From Patescibacteria group bacterium (GTDB taxonomy: Bacteria; Patescibacteriota; Patescibacteriia; UBA2591; UBA6264), in contig JAQTOB010000003.1 of assembly GCA_028713575.1 (NCBI GenBank), positions 40,350-72,349 on the forward strand: 32,000 nt of DNA, in the 5' to 3' direction. Made by a program: the position numbers and the translations under genes. Of this stretch, positions 4,259 to 32,000 are shown in pieces (the first letter of the stretch is position 1; the number at the start of each line of letters is the position of its first letter). The notes beneath the pieces are model-generated. The model was not told the DNA's origin. It saw only the letters and a program-made list of their open reading frames with translations, and searched no databases.

Positions 4259-4485
4259 TTTTTTAAAAGAAAATAAATCAATTAAACGTGGACAAATAAT
4301 TTGATATTATTTATAATAAAAAAATAGTGATAAATGTTTTATATCTCTATTTTTTAAAATTTAAAATTTAAACATGCGGATAAGCATTGACGCTTGTCCC
4401 GACACTAAATCTACGGATTAGTGTGGAACTTCGCTGTTTTGGAAAGAACAAGGCCTTATGGCATAAATTTTTAATCTTAACAAAT

Positions 4486-5010
4486 ATGCGGATAGGTATT
4501 GACGCTCGCTTCTTAGGACTTAAGGTTGGAATTGGGCGTTACACGGAAAAATTAATAGAACACTTAGAAAAGAATGATAATCAGAATGATTATTTTATTT
4601 TTGTTAAAAAACAGAATTTCAACCTCTATTGTCCAACCAATAAGAGATTTCATAGAGTTTTGGCTGACGACCAATGGTATTCGTTCAGGGAACAAATATT
4701 TTTTCCCCACCGGCTTTATAAACAAAGACTGGACTTAGTGCATTTTCTTCATTTTAATGTTCCTTTACTGTATTTTGGAAAATTTATTATAACTATTCAC
4801 GATTTAACACAAAGAAATCTAACCAAAGAAGCAAGCAAACGGCCTTGGCTATTTTTTCTATTTAAAAAGGCGGCCTATCGGCTGATCATATGGAGCGCTT
4901 TAAGGAGGGCCGAAAAGATTATCACAGTATCCAATTTTACTAAACAACAAATAATTAAATATTATAACGTGAATCCCGAAAAAATATCAGTTGTTTATGA
5001 GTCCTGTTAA
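4486..5010 (+). CDS. Glycosyltransferase family 4, N-terminal domain fragment
   Basis: MRIGIDARFLG...GIGRYT...HFLHFNVP...ITIHDL...VSNFTKQQI...VVYE is a GT4 N-terminal Rossmann domain. It stops at TAA 5008-5010, where the interdomain linker should continue. The track extension 4387-4485 is not credible. Confidence 0.7.
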   Translation: MRIGIDARFLGLKVGIGRYTEKLIEHLEKNDNQNDYFIFVKKQNFNLYCPTNKRFHRVLADDQWYSFREQIFFPHRLYKQRLDLVHFLHFNVPLLYFGKFIITIHDLTQRNLTKEASKRPWLFFLFKKAAYRLIIWSALRRAEKIITVSNFTKQQIIKYYNVNPEKISVVYESC

Positions 5011-5077
5011 AAATTCCCTTTTAAGAGGTTTTTTATTAGGATTTAAAGAAAGATAATTTATTATAATTTCTAATAGG

Positions 5078-5632
5078 ATGAATCAGCATAAAAAAAACAA
5101 CCCTTACTTACTTTACGTGGGCAACTCCTGTCCCCATAAAAATCTTGAACGTTTACTTAGGGCTTTTAATGTTGTTTCAAAAGAAATTTCCGATTTGAAT
5201 TTGATTTTAGTGGGCAAAATAGATTATTTTTATAAAAGAACACAGAAACAGGCGGAAAAATTAAAATTAAGTAACAAGGTGATATTCGTCGGCGAATTGT
5301 CAGACGAAGAATTAAACAAGGCCTATCAGGACGGTTTGGCCTATGTTTTTCCTTCTTTGTCCGAGGGGTTTGGCCTACCTGGCTTGGAAGCAATGAAACA
5401 AGATTTACCAGTAATCAGTTCAAATAAAGAGCCTTTGCCTGAAATTTACGGTCAGGCGGCGATTTATTTTAATCCTGAAGATATCCAGGACATGGCTAAA
5501 AAAATTTTAGAAGTTGTTACCAATGGCCCTTTAAGAGAGAGGTTGAAGATTTTAGGAAAAAATCAGGTAAAAAAATATTCTTGGAACAAGTGCTCTAAGC
5601 AAATATTAGAAATTTACAAGCAGATTTTATAA
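5078..5632 (+). CDS. Glycosyltransferase family 4, C-terminal (Glycos_transf_1) domain fragment
   Basis: YLLYVG....KNLERLLRAF...LILVGK...FPSLSEGFGLPGLEAM is the GT4 C-terminal catalytic domain. It is in a different reading frame from the N-terminal fragment. Confidence 0.7.
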   Translation: MNQHKKNNPYLLYVGNSCPHKNLERLLRAFNVVSKEISDLNLILVGKIDYFYKRTQKQAEKLKLSNKVIFVGELSDEELNKAYQDGLAYVFPSLSEGFGLPGLEAMKQDLPVISSNKEPLPEIYGQAAIYFNPEDIQDMAKKILEVVTNGPLRERLKILGKNQVKKYSWNKCSKQILEIYKQIL

Positions 5633-5778: not shown

Positions 5779-6267
5779 TTATAATTTTTCAGTCCCGATC
5801 ATTTTTGGCTCAAAATTTTCATGCGTTAATTTTGAAACGGGTTGGATTGATTTAGACAATTTTTCCACATAATGGTATTGCCATTTTTTTTCTTGTTTAA
5901 AAAATTCTTTTTTCCATTTATTAAACTGTTTCTCTTTTAACCCATATAAGCGACCATCAAGGGCCGGAATAATAATTTTTTTGATTACTTCTCTTTTTCG
6001 GACCAATAAAACAATTTGATGTCGTCGGATAGAAGTTTTTGTTTTATCTTGATATTCATATTCATAAATAGATTCTTTTAGGCCTAGACTATTTTTAAGG
6101 GCAAAAAGAAGCTTTTTATCATTATGGCGCATTCTAATTTGGAAAACGGCATTTTTTGAATTTTTATTACCATAAGTCCAGCTAAAATATCCATTTTCAC
6201 AAATTAGGCCGGCAATAAAATCAAAAGAAAGGTTTTTAACATTTGTAATATTGGGAATCTTTGACAT
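5779..6267 (-). CDS. Free-standing single-motif LAGLIDADG homing-endonuclease-like protein
   Basis: 162 aa. FDFIAGLICENGYF matches the LAGLIDADG helix. Downstream pattern (FQIRMRHNDKKLLFALKNSLGL...IIIPALDG..LYGLKEKQFNKW) is typical of the family. Confidence 0.75.
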   Translation of the reverse strand: MSKIPNITNVKNLSFDFIAGLICENGYFSWTYGNKNSKNAVFQIRMRHNDKKLLFALKNSLGLKESIYEYEYQDKTKTSIRRHQIVLLVRKREVIKKIIIPALDGRLYGLKEKQFNKWKKEFFKQEKKWQYHYVEKLSKSIQPVSKLTHENFEPKMIGTEKL

Positions 6268-6406
6268 AAGATATGTTTATTTAGGAATGTTCCTCGCGGA
6301 ACATTTCGTTATACAGTATAACAAAATTAAGAAATAAAGTAAATAGATAAATCAATAATATCCCTTTTTAATAATATATTATTAGCGTCGTAAATTATAA
6401 ATAATT

Positions 6407-6900
6407 AATGCGAATTATCTTTAAAAACCAATTTTACGAATGGTTTTTACATTATATAGGGGCACGAGTTTAATATAATGGTTATAATGTGAGCCTTTAA
6501 TTAAACCTATATTATATAAGCAGGCCAAAGCTCTCATGGGGCCAGTTCCCTAAAAGTAGTCAAAATAGTTCTAAATTTAAAAAATCCTTCTAAAACGCTT
6601 TACTGATAAGACTTTTAGAAGGGTATTTTGGGGGGACAGTCCCCTTTTTGAATAAATGCGAATTATCTTTAAAAACCAATTTTACGAATGGTTTTTACAT
6701 TATATAGGGGCACGAGTTTAATATAATGGTTATAATGTGAGCCTTTAATTAAACCTATATTATATAAGCAGGCCAAAGCTCTCATGGGGCCAGTTCCCTA
6801 AAAGTAGTCAAAATAGTTCTAAATTTAAAAAATCCTTCTAAAACGCTTTACTGATAAGACTTTTAGAAGGGTATTTTGGGGGGACAGTCCCCTTTTTGAA
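6407..6900. repeat. Perfect tandem direct duplication, 2 x 246 bp separated by 2 nt (period 248)
   Basis: 6407-6652 and 6655-6900 are identical by eye at every position. Confidence 0.95.
6630..6649 (+). terminator. Intrinsic-terminator-like hairpin at the end of repeat unit 1 (same element at 6878-6897)
   Basis: GGGGA-CAG-TCCCC stem-loop directly followed by TTTTT. Confidence 0.45.
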
Positions 6901-6948
6901 GAAAGTCTCTTTTTTAAAGAAGCCCCGAGCGAGGCGGCTGATTTAATA

Positions 6949-7223
6949 TGGTGGACTTAGGCAGAATTGAGCTGCCGTCTCCGCAACTCGCTCCGTTAGA
7001 AATTTAGTATGTGAATCACCGCGCCAAATTCTTAAATAGATAATTCCATTTTATTTTGAAAGCACTTACAATAATTAGAAGTATAGATTTAGTGTAGGAG
7101 TGGACTCGACGAGAATCGAACTCGTATTTCCGCAATGCGAATGCGGTGTACTGCCGTTGTACTACGAGCCCTAATTTTCTAACGGGGTGAAAATGCGGCG
7201 CACCACTGCTGTACTATAAGCCC
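6949..7223 (-). other. Interrupted tRNA-Ala-like gene: 5' half 7223->7187, 3' half 6986->6949 with encoded CCA, ~200-nt intervening segment
   Basis: The halves pair 7/7 in the acceptor stem (GGGCTTA/TAAGTCC, G3.U70) and 5/5 in the anticodon stem (CCGCA/TGCGG). T arm is GGCAG-CTCAATT-CTGCC. The intervening segment is bounded by inverted repeats at 6993-7007 and 7171-7185. Confidence 0.6.
7101..7171 (-). tRNA. tRNA-Ala (anticodon CGC)
   Basis: GGGCTCG/CGAGTCC acceptor with G3.U70, CCGCA-TTCGCAT-TGCGG anticodon arm, ACGAG-TTCGATT-CTCGT T arm, discriminator A. No encoded CCA. Confidence 0.85.
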
Positions 7224-8312: not shown

Positions 8313-9095
8313 ATGTATTTTTATATTTACGATTCTTTTTTAGCTGAAAAAAAATATCTTAGGATTCTTTCTAAAATAGAAACGAGATTGGCTAGTTTGG
8401 ACATTGCCGGGAAAAAATATCAACTTTCTATTTTAAGAAGTGTTAAAGAAATAGTGGACGAAATCCTTACAAAAGAATCGCCCACCATTATTGTTGTTGG
8501 CGGAGACCAAACTTTTTATCAAGCGGCCTTAGCCGCGGCCGGGACATCGGCGGTTTTGGGATTTATCCCCACAGAACAAGATTCTTTGGTCGCTGGAATT
8601 TTGGGCCTGCCGATTAATGAATGTTCTTGTGATATTATTTCCGCCCGACGAATAGAGGAAATTAACACGGGGAGAATCAACAACGAAAGATTTTTTTCCT
8701 CAATAATTTTTGAAGCGAATAAAACAACCATTAAGGCGGACGAAAAATACGAGATAGTTCCTCAAAAAATAAAATTAATTAAGGTTATCAATTTAGATAT
8801 GTTGTGTTTTGATAAAATTTTTTCCGAACCGGACTGGCCAAGATTGGCCAGTAATCCCAAAGATAACCAATTAGAAGTTTTAATGGGAACTCCAGAAAGA
8901 AAACTTTTATTTTTTAAAAAAAAGGAGAAAAGAGACAGCTTGTTTTTTGTTAAAAAATTAGAAATAAAATCTAAAAAACACGACCAAGAAATTTTAATTA
9001 AAGTTGATCGCCATCGAACAGTTAAAACGCCGGCGGTGGTAAAAACCGCCAAAGAAAAAATTAATTTAATTGTAGGAAAAGACAGAATTGTTTAA
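8313..9095 (+). CDS. Diacylglycerol-kinase catalytic domain (YegS/BmrU-like) lipid kinase family protein
   Basis: IIVVGGDQTFYQAA...LGFIPTEQDSLVAGILGLP resembles the DAGK_cat GGDGT / iP.GtgNd motifs, in degenerate form. Confidence 0.5.
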   Translation: MYFYIYDSFLAEKKYLRILSKIETRLASLDIAGKKYQLSILRSVKEIVDEILTKESPTIIVVGGDQTFYQAALAAAGTSAVLGFIPTEQDSLVAGILGLPINECSCDIISARRIEEINTGRINNERFFSSIIFEANKTTIKADEKYEIVPQKIKLIKVINLDMLCFDKIFSEPDWPRLASNPKDNQLEVLMGTPERKLLFFKKKEKRDSLFFVKKLEIKSKKHDQEILIKVDRHRTVKTPAVVKTAKEKINLIVGKDRIV

Positions 9096-11365: not shown

Positions 11366-11638
11366 ATGTTGAAAGGAGCTCTAAATGTTATTGTAATTAT
11401 AATTTTTATCTTTATTTTTTTGGTTTGGTTTCTTGATTTAACCGCCTCTAACCAGACGGAAGGCAATTTAATTAAAATGCTTGAGGGGGCGGTAATTGAA
11501 GCGGGGAAATCTTTTAAAGAATTTAAAGATAACATAAACCTGTTTAGGGGCGAAAAATCTTTCGTGCCATTAAATGAAACAGAAATAGATATTTTAAAAG
11601 AAAAAATTTTACAGCATGAAGATGAAGAAAAAAAATAA
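11366..11638 (+). CDS. Small membrane-anchored hypothetical protein
   Basis: 90 aa with an N-terminal hydrophobic helix ([16 protein letters not shown]) and a charged tail. Overlaps the gyrA start by 23 nt. Confidence 0.4.
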
Positions 11639-14600
11639 AAAACCTGAAATTAATAAAAAAGAAAATTTGTTAAACGGGCCTTCTATAGAAATTAGAAAAG
11701 AAAAGATAGAGTTAGTTGACATGGAGCAAGAAGTCAGCCGCTGTTATATAGATTACGCCATGAGTGTTATTGTTTCTCGCGCTCTTCCTGACGTGCGTGA
11801 TGGTTTAAAGCCGGTTCATCGACGAATCCTCTATGCAATGTTTGAAATGGGCTTAAAACCCAATGTTAAATATAGAAAATCGGCAACAGTGGTAGGAGAA
11901 GTTTTGGGGAAATTTCATCCACATGGCGACGCCGCGGTTTATGACGCCATGGTAAGAATGGCTCAGGACTTTTCTTTACGTTATCCTTTAATTGATGGCC
12001 AAGGGAACTGGGGGTCTAATGAAGATGAGGCGGCCCATATGAGATACTGTATTGGCGGAAATTCATTGGTTATTACTAATAGATGTTTAGAGAGGATAGA
12101 GAACATCTCAAAGAAAGAGAATATAAACATCAAAGTACTTTCCTTTGACAATAAAATAAACAGGGCGTCAAAATGGTTTGATTCGGGACTCCACCCCACT
12201 TTAACCGTTAGGACGTTCAGGGGGATGACTCTTTGTGGAAGCTTTAACCATCCCATTTTGACCTGGGATTTAAACGGAGAAAAGCCGGGATTCAAGTGGA
12301 AGTTGTTGGAAAATTTGGAGAAAAACGATTACGCGGTGATTTCCAGGAGCGATCCGCTTTGGTCCGGGAAAGACCCTCTTTTGAAAAAATTCCATCAAAT
12401 CCCCGTAAACAAAAGGACGAAAGTTCACGTTTTGCCCAAGAAAATGACACCGGAATTGGCTTTTATTCTCGGAGCGATAATCGCCGAAGGATATACGGCT
12501 AAGGGATATCGCAATTCGGGGAGCAAAAAATGGCAGCCGCCGTATATCGGATTTTGTAACAGTAATGAAGAATTTATAGAAAAATTCAAGCAGAATTTCA
12601 AAAAAACATTTCCAGACTGCCGTTTACATGAATTTAAACGCCGGTCGCAGGGGCGGACCAGAAAAAAATACGTTTTGGAAGTCCGCTCAAAACACGTAGT
12701 CGATTTTTTAATAAACCTCGGTTTGAAACATTGTCGGGCCGGAGACAAAACTGTTCCTCCGGCGTTGTTCCACGCTTCTCCCAAAACGATAACCACTTTT
12801 CTTAGGGCCTATGCGGAGGGCGAAGGCAGCGTTTATGAGAGCGTGAATAAAAAAAGAAAAAGCGTTTATTCAACCGTCGTTTTGGCTTCCAAGGGAAAAC
12901 GATTATTGGAAGAGATTCAAATTATTCTGTTAAGATTAGGGATAGTCTCTTCCTTCAGGAACAAAAAACAGAGAAATACACACAGATTATTTATCTTTGG
13001 TTACGATAATCTGAATCTGTTTCGGCAACATATCAATTTTGTTTCTCACGACAAAATTAGTCGTCTTCTGAAATCCATACAGAATAACGGGGGAGATAAA
13101 GCCATATCCAAAGCGGATTATATCCCTTTCATGACAGAGTATATAAGAGATAAATACAAGAAAAAGCGGTCCGTGATTCACGAGGACCAAAAGTGGATAG
13201 AAAAGCACAATTTTGATAGATTGCCGAAAATAAAAAATTACTGGGACAAAATCAAATCCATTCTCGATGAAGGCGATGTAAAATTACTCAATAGTCTAAT
13301 AAAAAATAATTATTTATTTGACAAAATTGTTTCAATCAGAAAGAGCGGTTTTCAAAAAGTCTATTCTCTAAAAGTAGAAAGCGATTGTCATTCTTTTATT
13401 TCCAATGGTTTTATCAGCCACAACACCGAGTGTCGTCTGGCGCCCATTGCCGAAGAGGTTTTGGCTGACATTGACAAAAAAACAGTTGACCTAATTTCCA
13501 ACTATGATGGAACATTAAAAGAGCCCGTTGTTCTTCCAACAAAAATTCCCACTTTAATTCTCAATGGTTCAATGGGAATCGCCGTAGGGATGGCCACTAA
13601 TATTCCCCCTCACAATCTAACGGAAGTTTGCAACGCCCTAAATTATTTAATTGACCATCCTGAGGCAGAAATAGAAGAAATTTTTAAATTTATTAATGGG
13701 CCCGATTTTCCAACGGGCGGCATTATTTTTAATTCTGATCAGATAAAACAAGTTTACGCCATTGGTAAGGGCCCGATTTTAATGAGAGCTAAAACAGAAA
13801 TTATTGAAAAAAATCTTAGTAGTTTTTGCATCATTATCAACGAACTTCCTTATCAAGTTAATAAAGCCGTTCTTTTACAAAAAATTGCCGAGTTAGTAAA
13901 AGACAAAAGAATTGAGGATATTAAGGATATTCGCGACGAGTCAGACAGAGAGGGAATCAGAATTGTTATTGAGCTTAAAAAGGGAGCATATCCTCAAAAG
14001 GTTTTAAACAAACTTTTTAAGCTTACTGATTTACAAATGACTTTTCATGTTAATATGGTTTCTTTAATTAATGGAATCCAGCCAAGAGTTATGGGATTAA
14101 AGGGGGTTTTAGAAGAGTATATTCAACACCGTCAAATTATTGTTAGACGAAGAAGTGAGTATGATTTGGAAAAAACAAACGAAAGAATTCACATTTTAAA
14201 AGGGTTGCAAACGGCATTGGACCATTTAGACGAGATTATAAAAATAATCAGACATTCTCAGGACAGAGAAACTGCTAAAAATAATTTAATAAAAAAATAT
14301 AGATTAACCGAGGTTCAGGCTCAGGCAATATTAGAGACAAAACTTCATCAATTAGCTAACTTAGAAAGACAAAAAATTAAAGAGGAATTAAAAGAAAAAA
14401 TTCAAAAAGCCAAAGAATTAGAAACATTACTCGCTCAACCCAAAATGATTTTAGACATTATAAAGAAAGAAACCAAAGAATTAAAAGAAAAATATGGGGA
14501 CGAAAGAAGGACCCAGGTGGTTTCTCAAGGGGTGGAAAATTTTAAGGAAGAAGATTTAGTCCCCAATGAGCCGGCGATTATTATTATTACTCAAGACGGT

Positions 14601-15524
14601 TATATAAAAAGAATTTCTCCAGAAAATTTTAAAATTCAGGCGAGAGGAGGAAAGGGGGTGACGGGATTAGAAATCAAAGAAGAAGATAGAGTTCAACATT
14701 TAATTGCTACAACCACTCATGCTAATGTTTTGTTTTTTACCACAAAAGGAAAAGTTTTTCAATTAAAAACCTATGACGTTCCTCAGGCACAACGGGCCGC
14801 CAAAGGACAGGCGTTAGTTAATTTTTTAGAAACAGGACCACAAGAAAAAATATCTTCAATTTTGCCGATTTCAGATTTGAAAAATTATAAAAATTTAGTG
14901 ATGGTTACGCGACAAGGGGTTATTAAAAAAGTTTCCATTAATGATTTTATTAACGTTAGAAGGTCGGGGTTGATTGCCATTAAATTAAAAGACAATGATG
15001 TTTTAAGGTGGGTGAAGCCCACAACAGGCAATGATGAAATAGTTTTGATTTCGGCCCTAGGACAGGCTATTAAATTTAAAGAAAAAGATTTAAGACCAAT
15101 GGGGCGGGGAGCCACAGGCGTGAGGGGGATGAGAATAAAAAATCAGGATTTTATTGTTGGGATGGATGTTTATCAGGCCGGAAAAACAAATATTAATAAC
15201 AAATTATTAGTAATTACTGAAAATGGCTTTGGAAAAATGACATTAATAAAAGATTATCGTTTTCAGCATCGGGGAGGGTCCGGCACTAAAACCGCTAAAA
15301 TTACAGATAAAACAGGGAAAATTGTTGATGCTAGACTAATTAATGAAAAAGATTTGCCCAATCACATAAAAGGAGATTTATTACTTATTTCTCAGCAGGG
15401 GCAGACCATCCGCTTGCCGATTAAAAGCATTCCCACCATGAGCCGGTCAACCCAGGGAGTGAGATTAATGCGCTTTTCAGCCAAAAACGGGAAGGACCAA
15501 GTAAGCTCTTCAACCTTAATTTAA
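11616..15524 (+). CDS. gyrA: DNA gyrase subunit A, interrupted by an intein
   Basis: Exteins carry canonical GyrA blocks: [35 protein letters not shown]|...|TECRL, and C-terminal beta-pinwheel repeats. Confidence 0.95.
12048..13424 (+). mobile_element. GyrA intein (459 aa) with LAGLIDADG homing-endonuclease domain
   Basis: Starts at Cys ([10 protein letters not shown]) right after the active-site MRY. Ends ...NGFISHN followed by Thr (TECRL). Block B is NHPILT. LAGLIDADG motifs are [14 protein letters not shown] and [13 protein letters not shown]. Confidence 0.9.
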
Positions 15525-16169: not shown

Positions 16170-18398
16170 ATGTTTGCCAAAAAAAATAAAAATTTAATTT
16201 TTATTTGTTTATTAGTATTCCAAATAATAAACCCTTTTAATTTTATAGAAAAAACAAAAGCCCTTGAACGGGATTCAGGGTCTGTCCCCGGCGAACTTTT
16301 AATAAAATTAAAAGGAAATTCTAAAATTTATAAAGTAAAAATCACAGACAATTTAATGGAAAGACAAAGGGTTGTTTTGGATATGCCGGAAGTGGAATGG
16401 GCGGAGCCCAATTATTTGTTTAAAATGAGTTATTTGCCCAATGATTTGTATTATCATGAACAATGGTATTTTAATAAAATAAAAACTCCGCAAGCTTGGG
16501 ACCTAATAAAGGGCGGAGACGGCGATATTATAATTGCTGTTTTAGACACAGGGGTGGACATTGACCATCCGGACATTAAAAAGAATGTATGGATCAATCA
16601 AAATGAGGTTTCCAATGACGGAAAAGACAATGATAACAACGGTTATATAGACGACTTAAATGGCTGGGATTTTATTAGAAATAATCCTAATCCCCGGCCA
16701 AAATTTGATGAATTATATACTGAAGGAGGAATCCATCACGGAACCTTGGTAGCCGGGATTGCTGCTGCCAGTGGAGACAATAACGAGGGGGTTTTAGGAA
16801 TTGCCTGGCAGAGTAAAATAATGCCCTTAAGAGTGTTAAACAGCGAGGGGGTTGGCAGTGTAGACCACGTTATTCAAGCAATTAATTATGCGGTCAACAA
16901 CGGAGCTAATGTTATAAATTTAAGTTTTGTTGGAACGAGTAAAAGTTATTTTTTGGCCGAAGCGCTAAAGTCCGCTTGGCACAAGGGTTTGATTATCGTT
17001 GCCGCGGCTGGGAATGAAACAACCGATCAACCGGTTAATTTAAATCAAAGTCCGAATTATCCGATTTGTCTTGATGAAAAAGATGAAAATTTTATTATTG
17101 GCGTGGCGGCCGTGGATAATACTGATCGCAAGGCCCTTTTTTCCGATTATGGATCAAATTGCGTTGACATTTCTGCTCCGGGCACGAGAATTTATGGCCT
17201 TTTGTCTTACAATCAAAATTATGATGGCTTTAAAGAATATTACGGCGGTTATTGGTCTGGCACCTCACTTGCCGCTCCCATGGTTTCTGGTTTGGCCGCT
17301 TTAGTTTGGTCTGTTAATCCCCTTTTTAGCAATAAACAGGTCCAAAATTTTATTTTATCAAAAGCAGATGGGATTAATTTAATCAATCCTAATTATAAAA
17401 ATCAGTTAGGGACGGGGAGAATAAATGCTTATCAGGCGGTAGAATATGCTTATAATCAACTAAGCGGATTGCCGCAATCTCATTATATTGTTACCGGCGC
17501 GGGCGCCAGCGGCGGACCTCATATTAGGGCTTTTGACTCTTCGGGTTTATTGATTAGTAATTTTTTCGCTTTTCATGAAAGTTTTAGGGGCGGTGTAAAT
17601 GTGGCGGCCGGAGATGTTGATGGCGACGGCCGGGACGAAATTATTGCCGGCGCGGGCGCCAGCGGCGGACCCCATATCAGAGTTTTTGATTTATATGGAC
17701 AACCGAAAGGAGGATTTTTCGCTTTTCATGAAAGTTTTAGGGGCGGTGTAAATGTGGCGGCCGGAGATGTTGATGGCGACGGCCGGGACGAGATTATTAC
17801 TGGAATAGGGAAAGGAGGGCTTCCTCAGGTTAAAATTTTTGATTTAACGGGTAATTTAAAAAAAGAAATAATGGCCTTTCATGAAAGTTTTAGGGGCGGT
17901 GTAAATGTGGCGGCCGGAGATGTTGATGGCGACGGTCGGGACGAGATTATTGCCGGCGCGGGCGCCAGTGGCGGACCCCATATCAGAGTTTTTGATAAAG
18001 ACGGCAATTTAAAATTTCATTTTTTTGCCTTTCATGAAAGTTTTAGGGGCGGTGTAAATGTGGCGGCCGGAGATGTTGATGGCGATATGAGAGATGAAAT
18101 TATTGTTAGCGTTGCTTCCGGCGCTTCGTCTTATGTTAGAATTTTTAGCCCAGAACTTCTTTTACTAAGATATCAATTTTTGGCCCATTCAAAGGATTTT
18201 TATAACGGGGTCAGAATTGCAACCGCTGACTTTGACAATAATCAACAAGCGGAGATTATCACTTCTTCCGGTCCGATTATAGAACCGCAAGTGCAAGTTT
18301 TTGATTCATTGGGCGGACAATTGTCACAATTTTACGCCTATAATCGTTATTTTAGAGGCGGCGTAAATGTGGCAACAATAAGAACTCAAGGATATTAA
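16170..18398 (+). CDS. Secreted subtilisin-like (S8) serine protease with a C-terminal FG-GAP repeat beta-propeller
   Basis: Signal-like N-terminus. Catalytic D (VLDTGVD), H (HHGTLVAG), S (SGTSLAAPMVSG). Then FAFHESFRGGVNVAAGDVDGDGRDEII repeated about 6 times. Confidence 0.85.
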   Translation: MFAKKNKNLIFICLLVFQIINPFNFIEKTKALERDSGSVPGELLIKLKGNSKIYKVKITDNLMERQRVVLDMPEVEWAEPNYLFKMSYLPNDLYYHEQWYFNKIKTPQAWDLIKGGDGDIIIAVLDTGVDIDHPDIKKNVWINQNEVSNDGKDNDNNGYIDDLNGWDFIRNNPNPRPKFDELYTEGGIHHGTLVAGIAAASGDNNEGVLGIAWQSKIMPLRVLNSEGVGSVDHVIQAINYAVNNGANVINLSFVGTSKSYFLAEALKSAWHKGLIIVAAAGNETTDQPVNLNQSPNYPICLDEKDENFIIGVAAVDNTDRKALFSDYGSNCVDISAPGTRIYGLLSYNQNYDGFKEYYGGYWSGTSLAAPMVSGLAALVWSVNPLFSNKQVQNFILSKADGINLINPNYKNQLGTGRINAYQAVEYAYNQLSGLPQSHYIVTGAGASGGPHIRAFDSSGLLISNFFAFHESFRGGVNVAAGDVDGDGRDEIIAGAGASGGPHIRVFDLYGQPKGGFFAFHESFRGGVNVAAGDVDGDGRDEIITGIGKGGLPQVKIFDLTGNLKKEIMAFHESFRGGVNVAAGDVDGDGRDEIIAGAGASGGPHIRVFDKDGNLKFHFFAFHESFRGGVNVAAGDVDGDMRDEIIVSVASGASSYVRIFSPELLLLRYQFLAHSKDFYNGVRIATADFDNNQQAEIITSSGPIIEPQVQVFDSLGGQLSQFYAYNRYFRGGVNVATIRTQGY
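17470..18398 (+). repeat. In-frame 153-nt (51-aa) FG-GAP tandem repeats; four copies nearly identical at the DNA level
   Basis: The TTTCATGAAAGTTTTAGGGGCGGTGTAAATGTGGC core recurs with its ATG at 17575, 17728, 17881 and 18034 (exact 153-nt period). Degenerate copies follow near 18187 and 18340. Confidence 0.9.
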
Positions 18399-30057: not shown

Positions 30058-31574
<1,517 letters not shown>

Positions 31575-31852
31575 TAGAGAAACCAACCCTTGCCTTTTTA
31601 AGGCAAGAGGTATGGTCGACTTTATTTAAGTTTATTTTAACTTAAATAAAAAGGTTGATTCTCTGTGTTTGATAGGTTTTTTTATTTTTATATAAAAATT
31701 ACGTTTCTTGATAAATTAATAGAAATTGTTATGCTTTAAAAAGCAAAAGAATAAAAACACAAAAAATGTTGTGCTTTATTTATTGGTTAAAATAATTTAT
31801 TTTAGTGAGCAAATATTGACGAATAGAAATAATTCATTAAAATAATTGTTAT

Positions 31853-31931
31853 GAGCGCGTAGCTCAGTTGGTTAGACCTGCCTACTCTGCCTACCGGCAG
31901 ACAGGCGGCAGGCAGGGCGCGTCTCTGATAG
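31853..31931 (+). other. tRNA-Ile(GAT)-like 5' half (acceptor 5' strand to anticodon loop) with a 40-nt GC-rich insertion in the D stem; no matching 3' half in the window
   Basis: GAGCGCG-TA-GCTC-AGTTGGTTA-GA[40 nt, 31877-31916]GC-G-CGTCT-CTGATAG. The expected AGACG strand does not follow. Confidence 0.5.
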
Positions 31932-31976
31932 CAATGATTTTTTTCTTTTAAAAGTTTCAAGTGGGCGTTTATAAGG

Positions 31977-32000
31977 GGGCGCGTAGCTCAGTTGGTTAGA
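31977..32000 (+). tRNA. 5' end of a spacer tRNA, truncated by the window edge; identity undetermined (Ile or Ala expected)
   Basis: GGGCGCG-TA-GCTC-AGTTGGTTAGA matches a standard acceptor and D arm. It differs from the upstream fragment at position 2 only. Confidence 0.6.

Follow-up and report, generated by a model that had tools for sequence, protein, structure and literature searches.

A tRNA-Ile gene nested within a split second copy in a Patescibacteria genome, and a family of GC-rich palindromes in tRNA genes

The window, the 32,000-nucleotide stretch of Patescibacteria DNA that was analysed, ends within a tRNA-Ile(GAT) gene that lies between the two parts of a second, outer tRNA-Ile copy. 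On a cautious reading, the outer pieces are probably the remains of a resident tRNA-Ile(GAT) gene broken by small selfish or insertional DNA, with the inner tRNA-Ile as the working gene. One of the insertions belongs to a family of GC-rich palindromes, and the findings point to a candidate kind of selfish DNA that colonises tRNA genes and has not previously been described. tRNA genes are classic landing sites for mobile DNA and, to our knowledge, the bacterial record at these genes has so far consisted of kilobase-scale integrase islands and group I introns. New here are a complete tRNA nested in the wreck of its twin, on a smaller scale and in reduced Patescibacteria genomes, exact hairpin insertions at recurring tRNA positions, and a palindrome family common to unrelated bacteria and phage-like contigs.

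The tRNA-Ile locus and its outer copy

The host is bacterial, a member of the Patescibacteria with a tiny, reduced genome, and has 35% G+C. The locus past position 32000 was read in two near-identical assemblies, a JGI contig (L091, 99.8% identical to the window) and an NCBI contig (L093), which were located through exact-protein look-ups of members of the TrmD cluster; a TrmD-based scan of genome contigs had yielded no relative above 61% identity. Related contigs derive from JGI 3300037067, SRR22315509 and SRR18595300. The portion of the host genome read, the window together with L091, comes to about 40 kb. The features of the locus are as follows.

30058 to 31575, forward strand: 16S rRNA gene, upstream of the tRNA-Ile locus (Rfam RF00177, 1460.6 bits)
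31816 to 31843, forward strand: promoter-like site TTGACG-16 nt-TAAAAT, a consensus match only, 10/12 (12738-12765 in L091)
31853 to 31876, forward strand: positions 1-23 of the outer tRNA-Ile, comprising GAGCGCG as the 5' acceptor strand, the D loop, and the D stem with its 5' strand and the GA of its 3' strand
31877 to 31916, unstranded: 40-nt GC-rich palindromic insertion of the CCTGCC...GGCAGG family, between D stem positions 23 and 24
31917 to 31930, forward strand: outer tRNA-Ile fragment, positions 24-37 (D stem GC, G26, anticodon stem 5' strand CGTCT and loop CTGATA)
31931 to 31976, forward strand: left flank of the anticodon-loop insert, which is also the 5' leader of the inner tRNA, with segments complementary to sequence 3' of the inner tRNA
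31977 to 32000, forward strand: first 24 nt of the inner tRNA-Ile(GAT), a partial Rfam match cut by the window end
12973 to 13925 of L091: tandem units of spacer and orphan 3' half, followed by tRNA-Val(GAC) and protein genes

The order of genes after the 16S is tRNA-Ile, tRNA-Val and the gene of the CCA-adding enzyme (cca). An earlier note on this DNA had placed the locus in a 16S-23S spacer, which did not hold, as no 23S was found within 8 kb downstream of the locus in L091 and the 16S has no linked 23S. The promoter-like site ends 9 nt upstream of the +1 of the outer tRNA fragment.

The same note had read the 5' part of a tRNA-Ile(GAT) here, and both its coordinates and its sequences stand, with positions 1-37 at 31853-31930. 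The stretch 31853-31876 (GAGCGCGTAGCTCAGTTGGTTAGA) is a 100% match to positions 3-24 of the inner tRNA (blastn-short E = 6e-9) and 31917-31930 (GCGCGTCTCTGATA) to positions 25-38, also at 100% (blastn-short E = 4e-4); position 2 is A in the outer fragment and G in the inner tRNA. The 5' fragment and its hairpin agree base for base in the window, L091 and L093, save for one T in a T-run. The sequence 5' of the outer fragment is unrelated to that 5' of the inner tRNA, which argues against a simple tandem duplication.

The inner tRNA, which was said to begin at 31977 and predicted to be a complete gene, is indeed complete in L091 at 12899-12972/3 (74.8 bits). Downstream of it come AGACG, a T arm and the 3' strand of an acceptor stem, which make up an orphan 3' half (positions 33-76). 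These elements had been predicted, as had an acceptor strand CGCGCTC; the strand found is CGCGCCC, giving an A2·C71 mismatch in the outer acceptor stem. Had only ordinary tRNA genes followed, the 5' fragment was to be read as a decayed partial duplication; both L091 and L093 contain the orphan 3' half. The outer gene exists in two parts, positions 1-37 on the 5' side and positions 33-76 on the 3' side, and its loops are altered to CTGATAG and GTTATAA. Three exact insertions interrupt it, one between D stem positions 23 and 24, one within the anticodon loop and one at 56/57 of the T loop. The anticodon-loop insert, of about 220 nt, holds the full tRNA-Ile copy between partly complementary flanks, while the T-loop inserts at 56/57 are hairpins of AT-rich plus GC-rich sequence. 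When the three insertions are removed in silico, ARAGORN calls the outer copy as tRNA-Ile(GAT), and the whole Ile region folds far better than shuffled sequences (z = -6.9). Exact insertions and near-perfect outer exons would be equally expected of a spliced gene.

In the left flank, the segments CAATGATT (31932-31939), TTTTAA (31946-31951) and GTTTCAAG (31954-31961) have their complements, in order, as the pairs CAATGATT/AATCATTG, TTTTAA/TTAAAA and GTTTCAAG/CTTGAAAC. A segment complementary to 31932-31976 had been predicted, and the paired segments are present just 3' of the inner tRNA; the complementarity is modest and alone not significant (z = -1.6, 7 of 100 shuffles being as good).

The orphan 3' half recurs in at least five tandem units of 168 or 189 nt, each consisting of spacer and 3' half, the copy number being uncertain owing to N gaps in both L091 and L093. 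The T loop of each orphan 3' half holds an insertion of 50-71 nt, and the units vary solely in the length of the GC hairpin, 13 nt as against 34 nt. Positions 36-57 and 58-75 of the inner tRNA are thus repeated downstream, as a direct repeat running to the gene end. The gaps between the intact gene and the fragments are 46 nt on the 5' side and about 100 nt on the 3' side, with no ORF in the ~100-nt spacer. No transposase, integrase or homing-endonuclease gene was found at or near the locus, and integrase is absent from the window and L091 as a whole; neither EndA nor a joining ligase was seen in the ~40 kb read. Taken overall, the nested model of the earlier note survives in its layout and its orphan 3' half, and is weakened by the acceptor mismatch, the tandem 3' halves, the weak flanks and the missing 23S.

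A family of GC-rich palindromes

The 40-nt block precisely separates GA from GC in the 3' strand of the D stem, with no tRNA base lost or duplicated. Its hairpin has a folding energy of -20.5 kcal/mol (z = -2.7), in keeping with the description in the earlier note of a self-complementary, GC-rich 40-nt element that interrupts the outer D stem, and it holds internal direct repeats (CTGCCTAC twice). The window has one copy, where 0 are expected by chance, and a search for further copies in the 40 kb read gave the palindrome once, plus one related T-loop hairpin. A single copy in 40 kb counts against claiming mobility within the host genome.

The identical 40-mer is found in another organism (L087), at the same D-stem position of a different tRNA. 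The palindrome in L087 is either 20 nt or 40 nt long, the short form having z = -4.1, and this contig also carries a tandem array of 5' halves. A hairpin of this kind also occupies the GA|GC position in L032, where it encloses the inner tRNA. Scanning metagenome contigs with the hairpin core did not reach the source locus but revealed a wider family, with the 26-mer in seven distinct contexts. The family has 11 sites in 1.06 Mb of Patescibacteria loci, compared with 0.25 in shuffles. The 20-nt core has 43 copies, spread over 35 loci of 31 viral contigs, and in three of these (L103, L126 and L133) it lies inside tRNA genes. This palindrome thus occurs in dozens of unrelated contigs of 38-68% G+C. 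The same-position 40-mer in L087, the hairpin in L032, the excess of sites over shuffles and the viral copies are evidence, at the level of sequence, that the family may be mobile.

The positions at which tRNAs carry inserts recur, being 21/22 or 23/24, the variable loop, the anticodon loop and the T loop. In the phage-like tRNA-Met of L126, the 20-nt palindrome lies in the variable loop and the gene is otherwise intact, suggesting that some hairpin-bearing tRNAs may be tolerated. In a scan for D-arm insertions each hairpin-bearing copy adjoined an intact copy. No target-site duplication was found at the D stem, variable loop or T loop insertions, and no transposase was seen at the loci read. 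That the palindrome is a library adapter or an assembly artefact was considered and rejected, since it is present in the assemblies of many projects, as diverged length variants and at exact tRNA positions.

Rickettsia palindromic elements and REP/REPIN are among the short palindromic elements already described. Selfish elements of this type in A+T-rich genomes include the GC clusters of yeast mitochondria (PMC4478555), and repetitive hairpin-forming elements are found in sponge and fungal mitochondria (PMC2800124). Like these, the elements here are G+C-rich imperfect palindromes of 20-40 nt that insert into genes, including RNA genes, and occur as length variants at unrelated sites. Unlike them, there is one copy in 40 kb, the core spans genomes including phage-like contigs of 60-68% G+C, and defined tRNA positions (21/22, 23/24 and the variable loop) are preferred. 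In contrast to REP/REPIN, neither target duplication nor a cognate transposase such as RAYT was seen at the loci read.

Nested tRNAs in the window and in relatives

The window contains a second nested tRNA, and its feature line is as follows.

6949 to 7223, reverse strand: nested Ala locus (minimum-free-energy fold z = -3.2; custom cloverleaf scan)

The earlier note had likened this locus to the tRNA-Ile locus in layout, and a nested cloverleaf was confirmed here by the fold and the scan. An outer Ala-like tRNA, split in the anticodon loop, has exons at 7223-7192 and 6986-6949 with CCA at its end. The insert is bounded by a 17-nt inverted repeat (7187-7171 and 7007-6991) and holds an intact tRNA-Ala(CGC) at 7171-7101. 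All four stems of the outer copy are kept through compensatory differences from the inner copy, and its CCA is encoded. A tmRNA-like identity for the Ala locus was unsupported, ARAGORN and Rfam finding none in the window; a 10-bit match to a tmRNA fragment belongs to L078, which is another locus.

ARAGORN in its -i and -io modes calls no outer tRNA, and custom cloverleaf scans were written. None of the outer copies is detected by standard tRNA finders, which may leave tRNA censuses of such genomes incomplete. Among the 134 ARAGORN tRNAs in 1.2 Mb, five are nested in a split outer copy, namely the Ala and Ile loci of the window, L032 Thr, L034 Lys and L057 Ile. A further seven are flanked, on one side or on both, by a partial copy of themselves (L011 Glu, L034 Met, L036 Cys, L051 Ile, L053 Pro, L073 Pro and L091 Leu), as is L096 Ile, which was fetched after the 1.2-Mb scan. 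It had been argued that two loci of this architecture speak against chance, and the same layout does recur in other Patescibacteria.

In each of the five nested loci the fragments meet at one tRNA position, which lies in the D stem in L032 and in the D loop in L034. Fragments that reach the gene end comprise Ile 33-76, Leu(GAG) ~53-76 plus CCA, Pro 54-76 and Met 57-76. The states of preservation differ. With its inserts removed, the outer copy of L032 is called by ARAGORN as tRNA-Thr(TGT), while the outer copy of L057, homologous to the outer tRNA-Ile of the window, has lost 3 nt, bears substitutions and fails to be called even after removal of the insert. The outer copy of L034 has decayed, L051 and L096 have the 5' fragment only, without a 3' half, and the close relatives L100 and L094 have a plain tRNA-Ile. 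Spacers of L051, L073 and L053 were aligned for a presence/absence comparison, and their sequences are highly diverged. The inner and outer copies of L032, like those of the Ala locus, clearly represent different genes.

Inverted repeats flank the inner tRNA in L057 (z = -8), L034 (z = -3.7) and L032 (z = -3.0). Complementary flanks are not general to the tRNAs of the group (median z = -0.2), being found at few loci, mostly nested ones. The flank repeats of the five nested loci are unrelated in sequence, differing even between the two loci of the window, which hints at selection for pairing in RNA or single-stranded DNA and not at a common transposase site.

Endonuclease genes are another feature of tRNA loci in this group. 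Genes of the GIY-YIG, HNH and LAGLIDADG types lie beside or inside tRNA genes in L133, L094, L073 and the window (5779-6267), and of six distinct GIY-YIG ORFs five are no more than 120 nt away from a tRNA gene. L133 has a GIY-YIG gene between an orphan 5' fragment and a full tRNA copy, which itself has a group I intron with an HNH gene. A LAGLIDADG-like ORF adjoins the Ala locus. The idea, suggested by L133, that the 46-nt spacer of the Ile locus is a GIY-YIG remnant was dropped, as its alignment was no better than those of shuffles or A+T-rich spacers. In phage T4, segB is a free-standing homing endonuclease gene in a tRNA gene cluster, and group I introns occur in the anticodon loops of bacterial tRNAs. 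Related contigs such as L133 resemble these systems in having endonuclease genes at tRNAs; the Ile locus, unlike them, has neither an endonuclease gene nor a ribozyme. The introns reported in 2022 in Patescibacteria rRNA genes are likewise from the same bacterial group, interrupt a stable-RNA gene and have helices that close extra sequence. Those introns are of group I or group II, some with homing endonucleases, whereas the present case concerns a tRNA gene that is interrupted by tiny hairpins and a second tRNA and has a replacement copy.

Origin of the outer copies

The outer copy looks like a relic and not like a spliced gene, as judged by the A2·C71 mismatch, the amplified 3' half, the lack of a bulge-helix-bulge (BHB) or group I signature, and the decayed outer copies in relatives. 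Transcription would start from the promoter-like site of the old gene, or would read through from the 16S, and the inner tRNA would be excised by RNase P and 3'-end processing enzymes, leaving the outer halves as by-products that are not joined. The insertion that destroyed the outer gene would have been rescued by the inner copy or have come with it. Gene conversion between the close direct repeats may keep the outer and inner copies near-identical, and the array could have arisen by unequal exchange of an orphan 3' half with the 3' part of the inner copy.

It is possible, although we regard it as doubtful, that the CCTGCC/GGCAGG palindromes and the inverted-repeat-flanked tRNA cassettes together form a new class of non-autonomous mobile element that targets tRNA genes and brings a replacement tRNA. 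The outer and inner Ile copies are near-identical within a lineage and differ between lineages, a pattern that local duplication or concerted evolution explains no worse than an incoming cargo tRNA does. Should the elements be mobile, they would represent a new way for selfish DNA to hold an essential gene, by carrying or provoking a spare copy.

It would seem unlikely that the fragments are scars of integration, in which elements attaching at tRNA-Ile rebuilt the gene and displaced the old 3' part and, separately, the old 5' part. Such elements would later have been deleted to about 50-100 nt, or would have been very small circles integrating in tandem, and the nesting would be a coincidence of two events at a favoured crossover site. 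The boundaries in the anticodon and T loops are at the usual crossovers of tyrosine integrases, the fragments reach the gene end, and the array of spacer and 3' half resembles tandem integration. Displaced tRNA fragments at the attachment sites of islands and prophages are known from Islander, where a regenerated tRNA with a displaced fragment is the standard signature of a genomic island (PMC4383910), and from the tRNA-Thr fragment of Caldiarchaeum, an archaeal precedent with the 5' fragment 1.8 kb upstream by way of a recombinase-bearing element (PMC3293823). The loci here share with these an intact tRNA and a nearby partial direct copy that runs from an anticodon-loop or T-loop boundary to the gene end. 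They differ in that just 46 nt and ~100 nt lie between the fragments and the intact gene, intervals that contain neither an integrase nor an island, and in that the 5' and 3' fragments make exactly one gene, carry hairpins and have the 3' part amplified. Neither tRNA-Ile half matched any viral contig as a phage attachment site. Two independent integrations would not predict the inverted repeats around the inner tRNA, nor are the exact D stem and T loop hairpin insertions explained by them; moreover, the junction position shared within all five nested loci falls at non-classic sites in L032 (D stem) and L034 (D loop).

Local duplication or slippage without mobile DNA is a still less likely origin. 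The heavily transcribed, hairpin-rich tRNA region would yield partial copies by template switching or unequal exchange, and the GC hairpins would have grown by slippage at their tips. The near-identity of outer and inner copies within each lineage is consistent with this, as are the tandem arrays of 3' halves in the window lineage and of 5' halves in L087, whose units differ by growth of the hairpin tip (13 versus 34 nt and 20 versus 40 nt, respectively), and the repeats within the 40-mer. Growth in place, however, cannot give an identical 40-mer at the same position of a different tRNA in a different organism (L087), or one 20-nt palindrome in dozens of unrelated contigs ranging from 38 to 68% G+C, and at the Ala locus and in L032 the inner and outer genes are clearly different.

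That the outer gene is instead a functional gene in pieces is improbable. One precursor would give two tRNA-Ile molecules, the inner cut out by RNase P and RNase Z and the outer halves joined, with their own stems and the flanking helix holding them while the inserts are removed; in a variant, the outer halves would act as a tRNA in several pieces or with extra arms. Bacteria would then have a counterpart to the archaeal multi-intron and split tRNAs. Archaeal disrupted tRNA genes have multiple non-canonical introns or are split or permuted, and their introns are thought to be mobile between tRNA genes (PMC4390854, PMC4033280, PMC3218864). The resemblance lies in interruptions of the D arm, anticodon loop and T loop, in inserts closed by helices and in the restoration of a tRNA on their removal; the differences are the bacterial host, the lack of a BHB, the whole tRNA in one insert and the decay of the outer copies. 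Exact inserts whose removal restores tRNA-Ile(GAT), and likewise the outer tRNA-Thr of L032, are in line with splicing, as are their recurring structural positions (21/22 or 23/24, anticodon loop and T loop), the helix that closes each insert within regions that fold well (z = -6.9, and -3.2 at the Ala locus), the four stems and encoded CCA of the outer Ala-like copy, and the tRNA-Met of L126, otherwise intact around its variable-loop palindrome. A joined product would start GAGCGCG (A2), where the inner type has GGGCGCG, and run ...GGTTAGA-GCGCGTCTCTGATAAAGACG...TTCGACTCC.

Inspection of the folds gave no 3-4-3 BHB at any junction, the junctions being continuous helices with 1x1 mismatches at the Ala locus and asymmetric loops at the Ile locus. 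A group I intron was also rejected, with no Rfam RF00028 match at the Ile or Ala loci (E <= 1-10), although the same model detects group I introns in L032 (74.6 bits) and L133 (86 bits). Group I splice features are absent at the Ile insert, where A or T precedes the 3' exon and no guide sequence for ...TGAT occurs close to the start. L078 does have such a feature, in which a U paired in P1 precedes the 5' splice site and the intron ends in G. The host is bacterial, and we know of no protein-dependent tRNA splicing, and of no tRNA splicing endonuclease, in bacteria. The outer product would also be redundant with the inner tRNA and have a poorer acceptor stem (A2·C71), its 3' half is amplified at least five times, and outer copies have decayed in L057 and L034 and lack 3' halves in L051 and L096. 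The broader proposal that Patescibacteria and some of their phages make tRNAs from genes in pieces, with hairpin inserts at fixed positions (D stem 23/24, anticodon loop and T loop) removed or tolerated in the RNA, is equally hard to credit. Since an insert may hold an entire second tRNA, a single precursor would then give two, and Bacteria would have protein-dependent or structural tRNA splicing. Bacterial tRNA splicing would need rethinking if the outer genes were expressed.

An assembly artefact, through mis-joined reads or collapsed or expanded repeats in short-read metagenome assemblies, is the least credible explanation: the arrays of L091 and L093 do contain N gaps, the array units are 100% identical repeats longer than a read, and two Logan contigs break at the 16S, but three independent assemblies show the same sequence from the 5' fragment through hairpin and spacer to where the inner tRNA starts, the insertions are at exact tRNA positions, and analogous loci are found in many MAGs from different projects.

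The tRNA-Ile locus and its continuation past the window

The G+C content of the window is 35.5% and its TrmD has its nearest proteins in MAGs of Patescibacteria (Candidate Phyla Radiation). ARAGORN and Rfam together call only three tRNAs in the whole window, and none within 31853-32000 except a truncated tRNA start at 31977. The two features that frame the locus, the second on the retrieved contig L091 (L-numbers denote retrieved contigs throughout), are:

30058-31575, bacterial 16S rRNA gene (Rfam, 1460 bits)
L091 12899-12972, complete inner tRNA-Ile(GAT) (74.8 bits)

The sequence reads as the earlier note had it, with GAGCGCGTAGCTCAGTTGGTTAGA, the 40-nt block CCTGCCTACTCTGCCTACCGGCAGACAGGCGGCAGGCAGG, GCGCGTCTCTGATAG and, 45 nt further on, GGGCGCGTAGCTCAGTTGGTTAGA at 31977. 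The GC-rich 40-mer occurs once in the window, where no copy is expected, and its predicted hairpin has an energy of -20.5 kcal/mol (z = -2.7). Folded alone, the 148-nt stretch is ordinary in energy (z = -0.4), so the case rests on tRNA homology and not on folding energy. A promoter-like TTGACG-16 nt-TAAAAT, a consensus match only, ends 9 nt upstream of position +1 of the outer copy, which fits an old gene whose promoter would now drive the inner tRNA.

Two contigs that extend the locus were obtained through exact look-ups within the TrmD 90%-identity cluster, L091 (a 517-kb JGI contig with 99.8% identity to the final 3 kb of the window) and L093 (NCBI assembly GCA_028711035.1, 99.9% identity). 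The complete inner tRNA and the downstream orphan 3′ half that had been predicted are both present in L091. The 3′ half recurs in a tandem array whose 168- or 189-nt units each consist of a spacer of ~100 nt, ...GTTATAAAGACGAGGTCGGAGGTTC, an insert and GACTCCTCCCGCGCCCA; every unit is thus an orphan 3′ half (positions 33-76) in which the T loop is split at 56/57. In the insert an A+T-rich hairpin precedes a G+C-rich one, the latter being 13 nt or 34 nt long, which is the sole difference between the two unit types. There are at least five units plus a truncated sixth, the count being uncertain owing to N gaps in L091 and L093. Together the 5′ fragment (positions 1-37) and the 3′ halves make up one tRNA-Ile gene, and deletion of the three inserts in silico gives an ARAGORN call of tRNA-Ile(GAT). 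After the array come tRNA-Val(GAC) and then a gene for the CCA-adding enzyme; since no 23S gene lies within 8 kb downstream in L091, the earlier description of the region as a 16S-23S spacer is wrong.

Related loci and the palindrome family

For each of the 134 ARAGORN tRNAs in 1.2 Mb, nearly all of it from Patescibacteria loci, the tRNA was compared with its own flanks; in these heuristic scans a partial self-copy was seen to adjoin many of them. L057 is a full analogue, with a 16S, an outer tRNA-Ile 5′ part bearing an 88-nt D-loop insert, an inner tRNA-Ile between the arms of an inverted repeat of ~30 bp (z = -8) and an outer 3′ part with a repeat-bearing insert of ~170 nt in the T loop; its outer exons show substitutions and a 3-nt deletion, and do not yield a tRNA call. 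Only the 5′ fragment is present in L051 and L096, where a G+C-rich hairpin lies between the D loop and the 3′ strand of the D stem, and the close relatives L100 and L094 have a plain tRNA-Ile gene. Such fragments are found at 4 of the 14 tRNA-Ile genes adjoining a 16S. In L032 the outer tRNA-Thr(TGT), otherwise intact, has its D stem split between GA and GC, the same position as at the Ile locus, by a hairpin CCTGCCCGCC...GGCAGGCGGG that holds the whole inner tRNA-Thr in its loop, while in L034 an inner tRNA-Lys with 18-bp inverted-repeat flanks sits inside the D loop of a decayed outer tRNA-Lys. Of the 131 tRNAs tested, it is the tRNA-Met(CAT) of L051 (7340-7650) whose flanks pair most strongly, as an A+T-rich inverted repeat of ~70 bp (duplex z = -9.5); the sequence around it shows no pieces of an outer tRNA.

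Further copies of the 40-mer, for which the earlier note proposed a genome search, were not seen in the ~40 kb of readable host genome, where it is single, but a related hairpin is there in the T loop, sharing the motif GGCNGACAGGC. The 26-nt core occurs in seven distinct intergenic contexts on JGI metagenome contigs of 36-43% G+C. One of these contexts is in L087, where the identical 40-mer occupies the same D-stem position in a tRNA-like 5′ half of another kind (anticodon TAT), and a second, tandem 5′ half carries a 20-nt version of the palindrome. These two halves (2380-2639; anticodon loop CTTATAG or TTTATAG), the first with an extra hairpin CTCCCC...CGGGG in its D loop, mirror the 3′-half array at the Ile locus; the contig ends before any visible inner tRNA. 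In L078 (3244-3300) the palindrome family is lengthened by tandem GGTAGGCAG units (CCTGCCTGCCGCCTGCCTGCCGGTAGGCAGGGTAGGCAGGGTAGGCAGG...), which suggests that the hairpins grow by slippage of 9-nt units.

Palindromes of the form CCTGCC...GGCAGG occupy 11 sites in 1.06 Mb of Patescibacteria loci, compared with 0.25 in shuffles. The perfect 20-mer CCTGCCTGCCGGCAGGCAGG was found in 43 copies (35 loci, 31 putative viral contigs of IMG/VR, 38-68% G+C), with up to six per putative viral contig. Three of the 43 lie inside tRNA genes (L126, L103 and L133); like the D-stem insertions of the 40-mer, they show no target duplication. On the putative viral contigs L126 (2239-2330) and L103 (about 8570-8660), both of 64-68% G+C, the insertion is in the variable loop of tRNA-Met(CAT), between AGG and TC; the L126 gene is otherwise intact and is called by ARAGORN as a 92-nt tRNA, and that of L103 has lost part of the T arm. 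The L133 copy (480-1470; IMG/VR contig 3300035537_000177) lies at 21/22 of an orphan tRNA 5′ fragment, directly 3′ of which are an 88-aa GIY-YIG gene (Pfam E = 3e-15) and then a full tRNA copy (Asn GTT by exon joining) with a group I intron (86 bits) encoding an HNH-like ORF, giving three kinds of selfish element in a single tRNA locus. Five of the six distinct GIY-YIG ORFs in the data set are within 120 nt of a tRNA gene. Small ones between or beside tRNA genes are:

L073 359-1017, GIY-YIG ORF
L094 8528-8719, GIY-YIG ORF
L032 11605-11874, GIY-YIG ORF

That of L094, which contains an internal stop codon, lies just upstream of the plain tRNA-Ile. The 46-nt spacer of the Ile locus was considered as a GIY-YIG gene remnant and rejected, its similarity being no better than chance.

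Origin of the outer tRNA pieces

The best-supported reading, which we judge somewhat probable, is that a resident tRNA-Ile gene was disrupted by the insertion of DNA, probably of a selfish kind. Function would then be carried by the intact inner tRNA-Ile and the outer pieces would be relics, kept similar to the inner copy by gene conversion and amplified by unequal exchange. At each of the five nested loci the outer 5′ and 3′ fragments share a single meeting point in the tRNA, which one insertion would explain more simply than two independent events.

Integration scars are an unlikely source of the pieces. The tRNA-Leu(GAG) of L091, and tRNA-Pro and tRNA-Met elsewhere, have only a displaced 3′ end, which starts in the T arm and adjoins a G+C hairpin, and this matches the classic integrase attachment-site layout of a regenerated tRNA with a displaced 3′ end (PMC4383910), but ~85-270 nt stand where an island would be expected. 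Slippage or duplication without mobility appears less likely still as the origin of the fragments. We give little credence to a gene truly spliced from its pieces. The complementary flanks expected of the nested model are borne out in so far as three short segments of the left spacer are complementary, in order, to the sequence just after the inner tRNA, pairings that are contained in predicted folds of the whole region (z = -6 to -7), but at the Ile locus this complementarity is not significant alone (z = -1.6), and an A2·C71 mismatch in the outer acceptor stem and the amplified 3′ half also count against the model. Neither a bulge-helix-bulge motif nor a group I signature is present at the locus, while Rfam detects genuine group I introns in related contigs. 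An assembly artefact is very improbable, the 5′ fragment, hairpin and spacer agreeing among all three assemblies.

Archaeal disrupted tRNAs, islands at tRNA genes, organellar hairpin elements and CPR rRNA introns are described in the literature; our literature searches brought up no account of Patescibacteria tRNA genes that are nested or invaded by hairpins.

The sister tRNA-Ala locus and other interrupted genes

The nested arrangement noted earlier at the Ala locus (7223-6949, minus strand) is upheld by a predicted cloverleaf-within-cloverleaf that forms spontaneously (z = -3.2), and the locus was also recovered by a custom cloverleaf scan. The outer tRNA has an acceptor stem GGGCTTA/TAAGTCC with ACCA, a D arm, an anticodon stem CCGCA/TGCGG and a T arm, and a 15-bp helix encloses the intact tRNA-Ala(CGC). 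CCA is encoded by the outer 3′ end and absent from the inner copy, resembling tRNA-Leu(GAG) in L091 (17449-17638), which has no encoded CCA and is followed ~80 nt downstream, past two G+C hairpins, by a CCA-ended copy of its last ~22 nt (17614-17638). The minus strand downstream of the Ala locus holds two tandem copies, 99% identical, of a 248-nt unit (6403-6904), and then a 162-aa ORF (6267-5779) whose LAGLIDADG_1 match is borderline (E = 1.7e-4; 22.9 bits, just short of the 23.1-bit cutoff) and which may be a free-standing homing endonuclease beside the nested tRNA-Ala.

Elsewhere in the window, the GyrA gene (11616-15524, plus strand) is interrupted by an intein with Intein_splicing and LAGLIDADG_3 matches at residues about 154-603. 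The tRNA-Thr(GGU) of L078 (5427-5698, minus strand) has an insert of ~204 nt at positions 36/37 with group I hallmarks, namely a 5′ exon ATGGT pairing with intron GCCAT and a terminal G; it gives no Rfam group I match at E ≤ 1 and no ARAGORN tRNA call. A family 4 glycosyltransferase is spread over two adjacent window ORFs, one with its N-terminal and one with its C-terminal half (4387-5010 and 5078-5632, together 4387-5632, plus strand), and may be a split or frameshifted gene.
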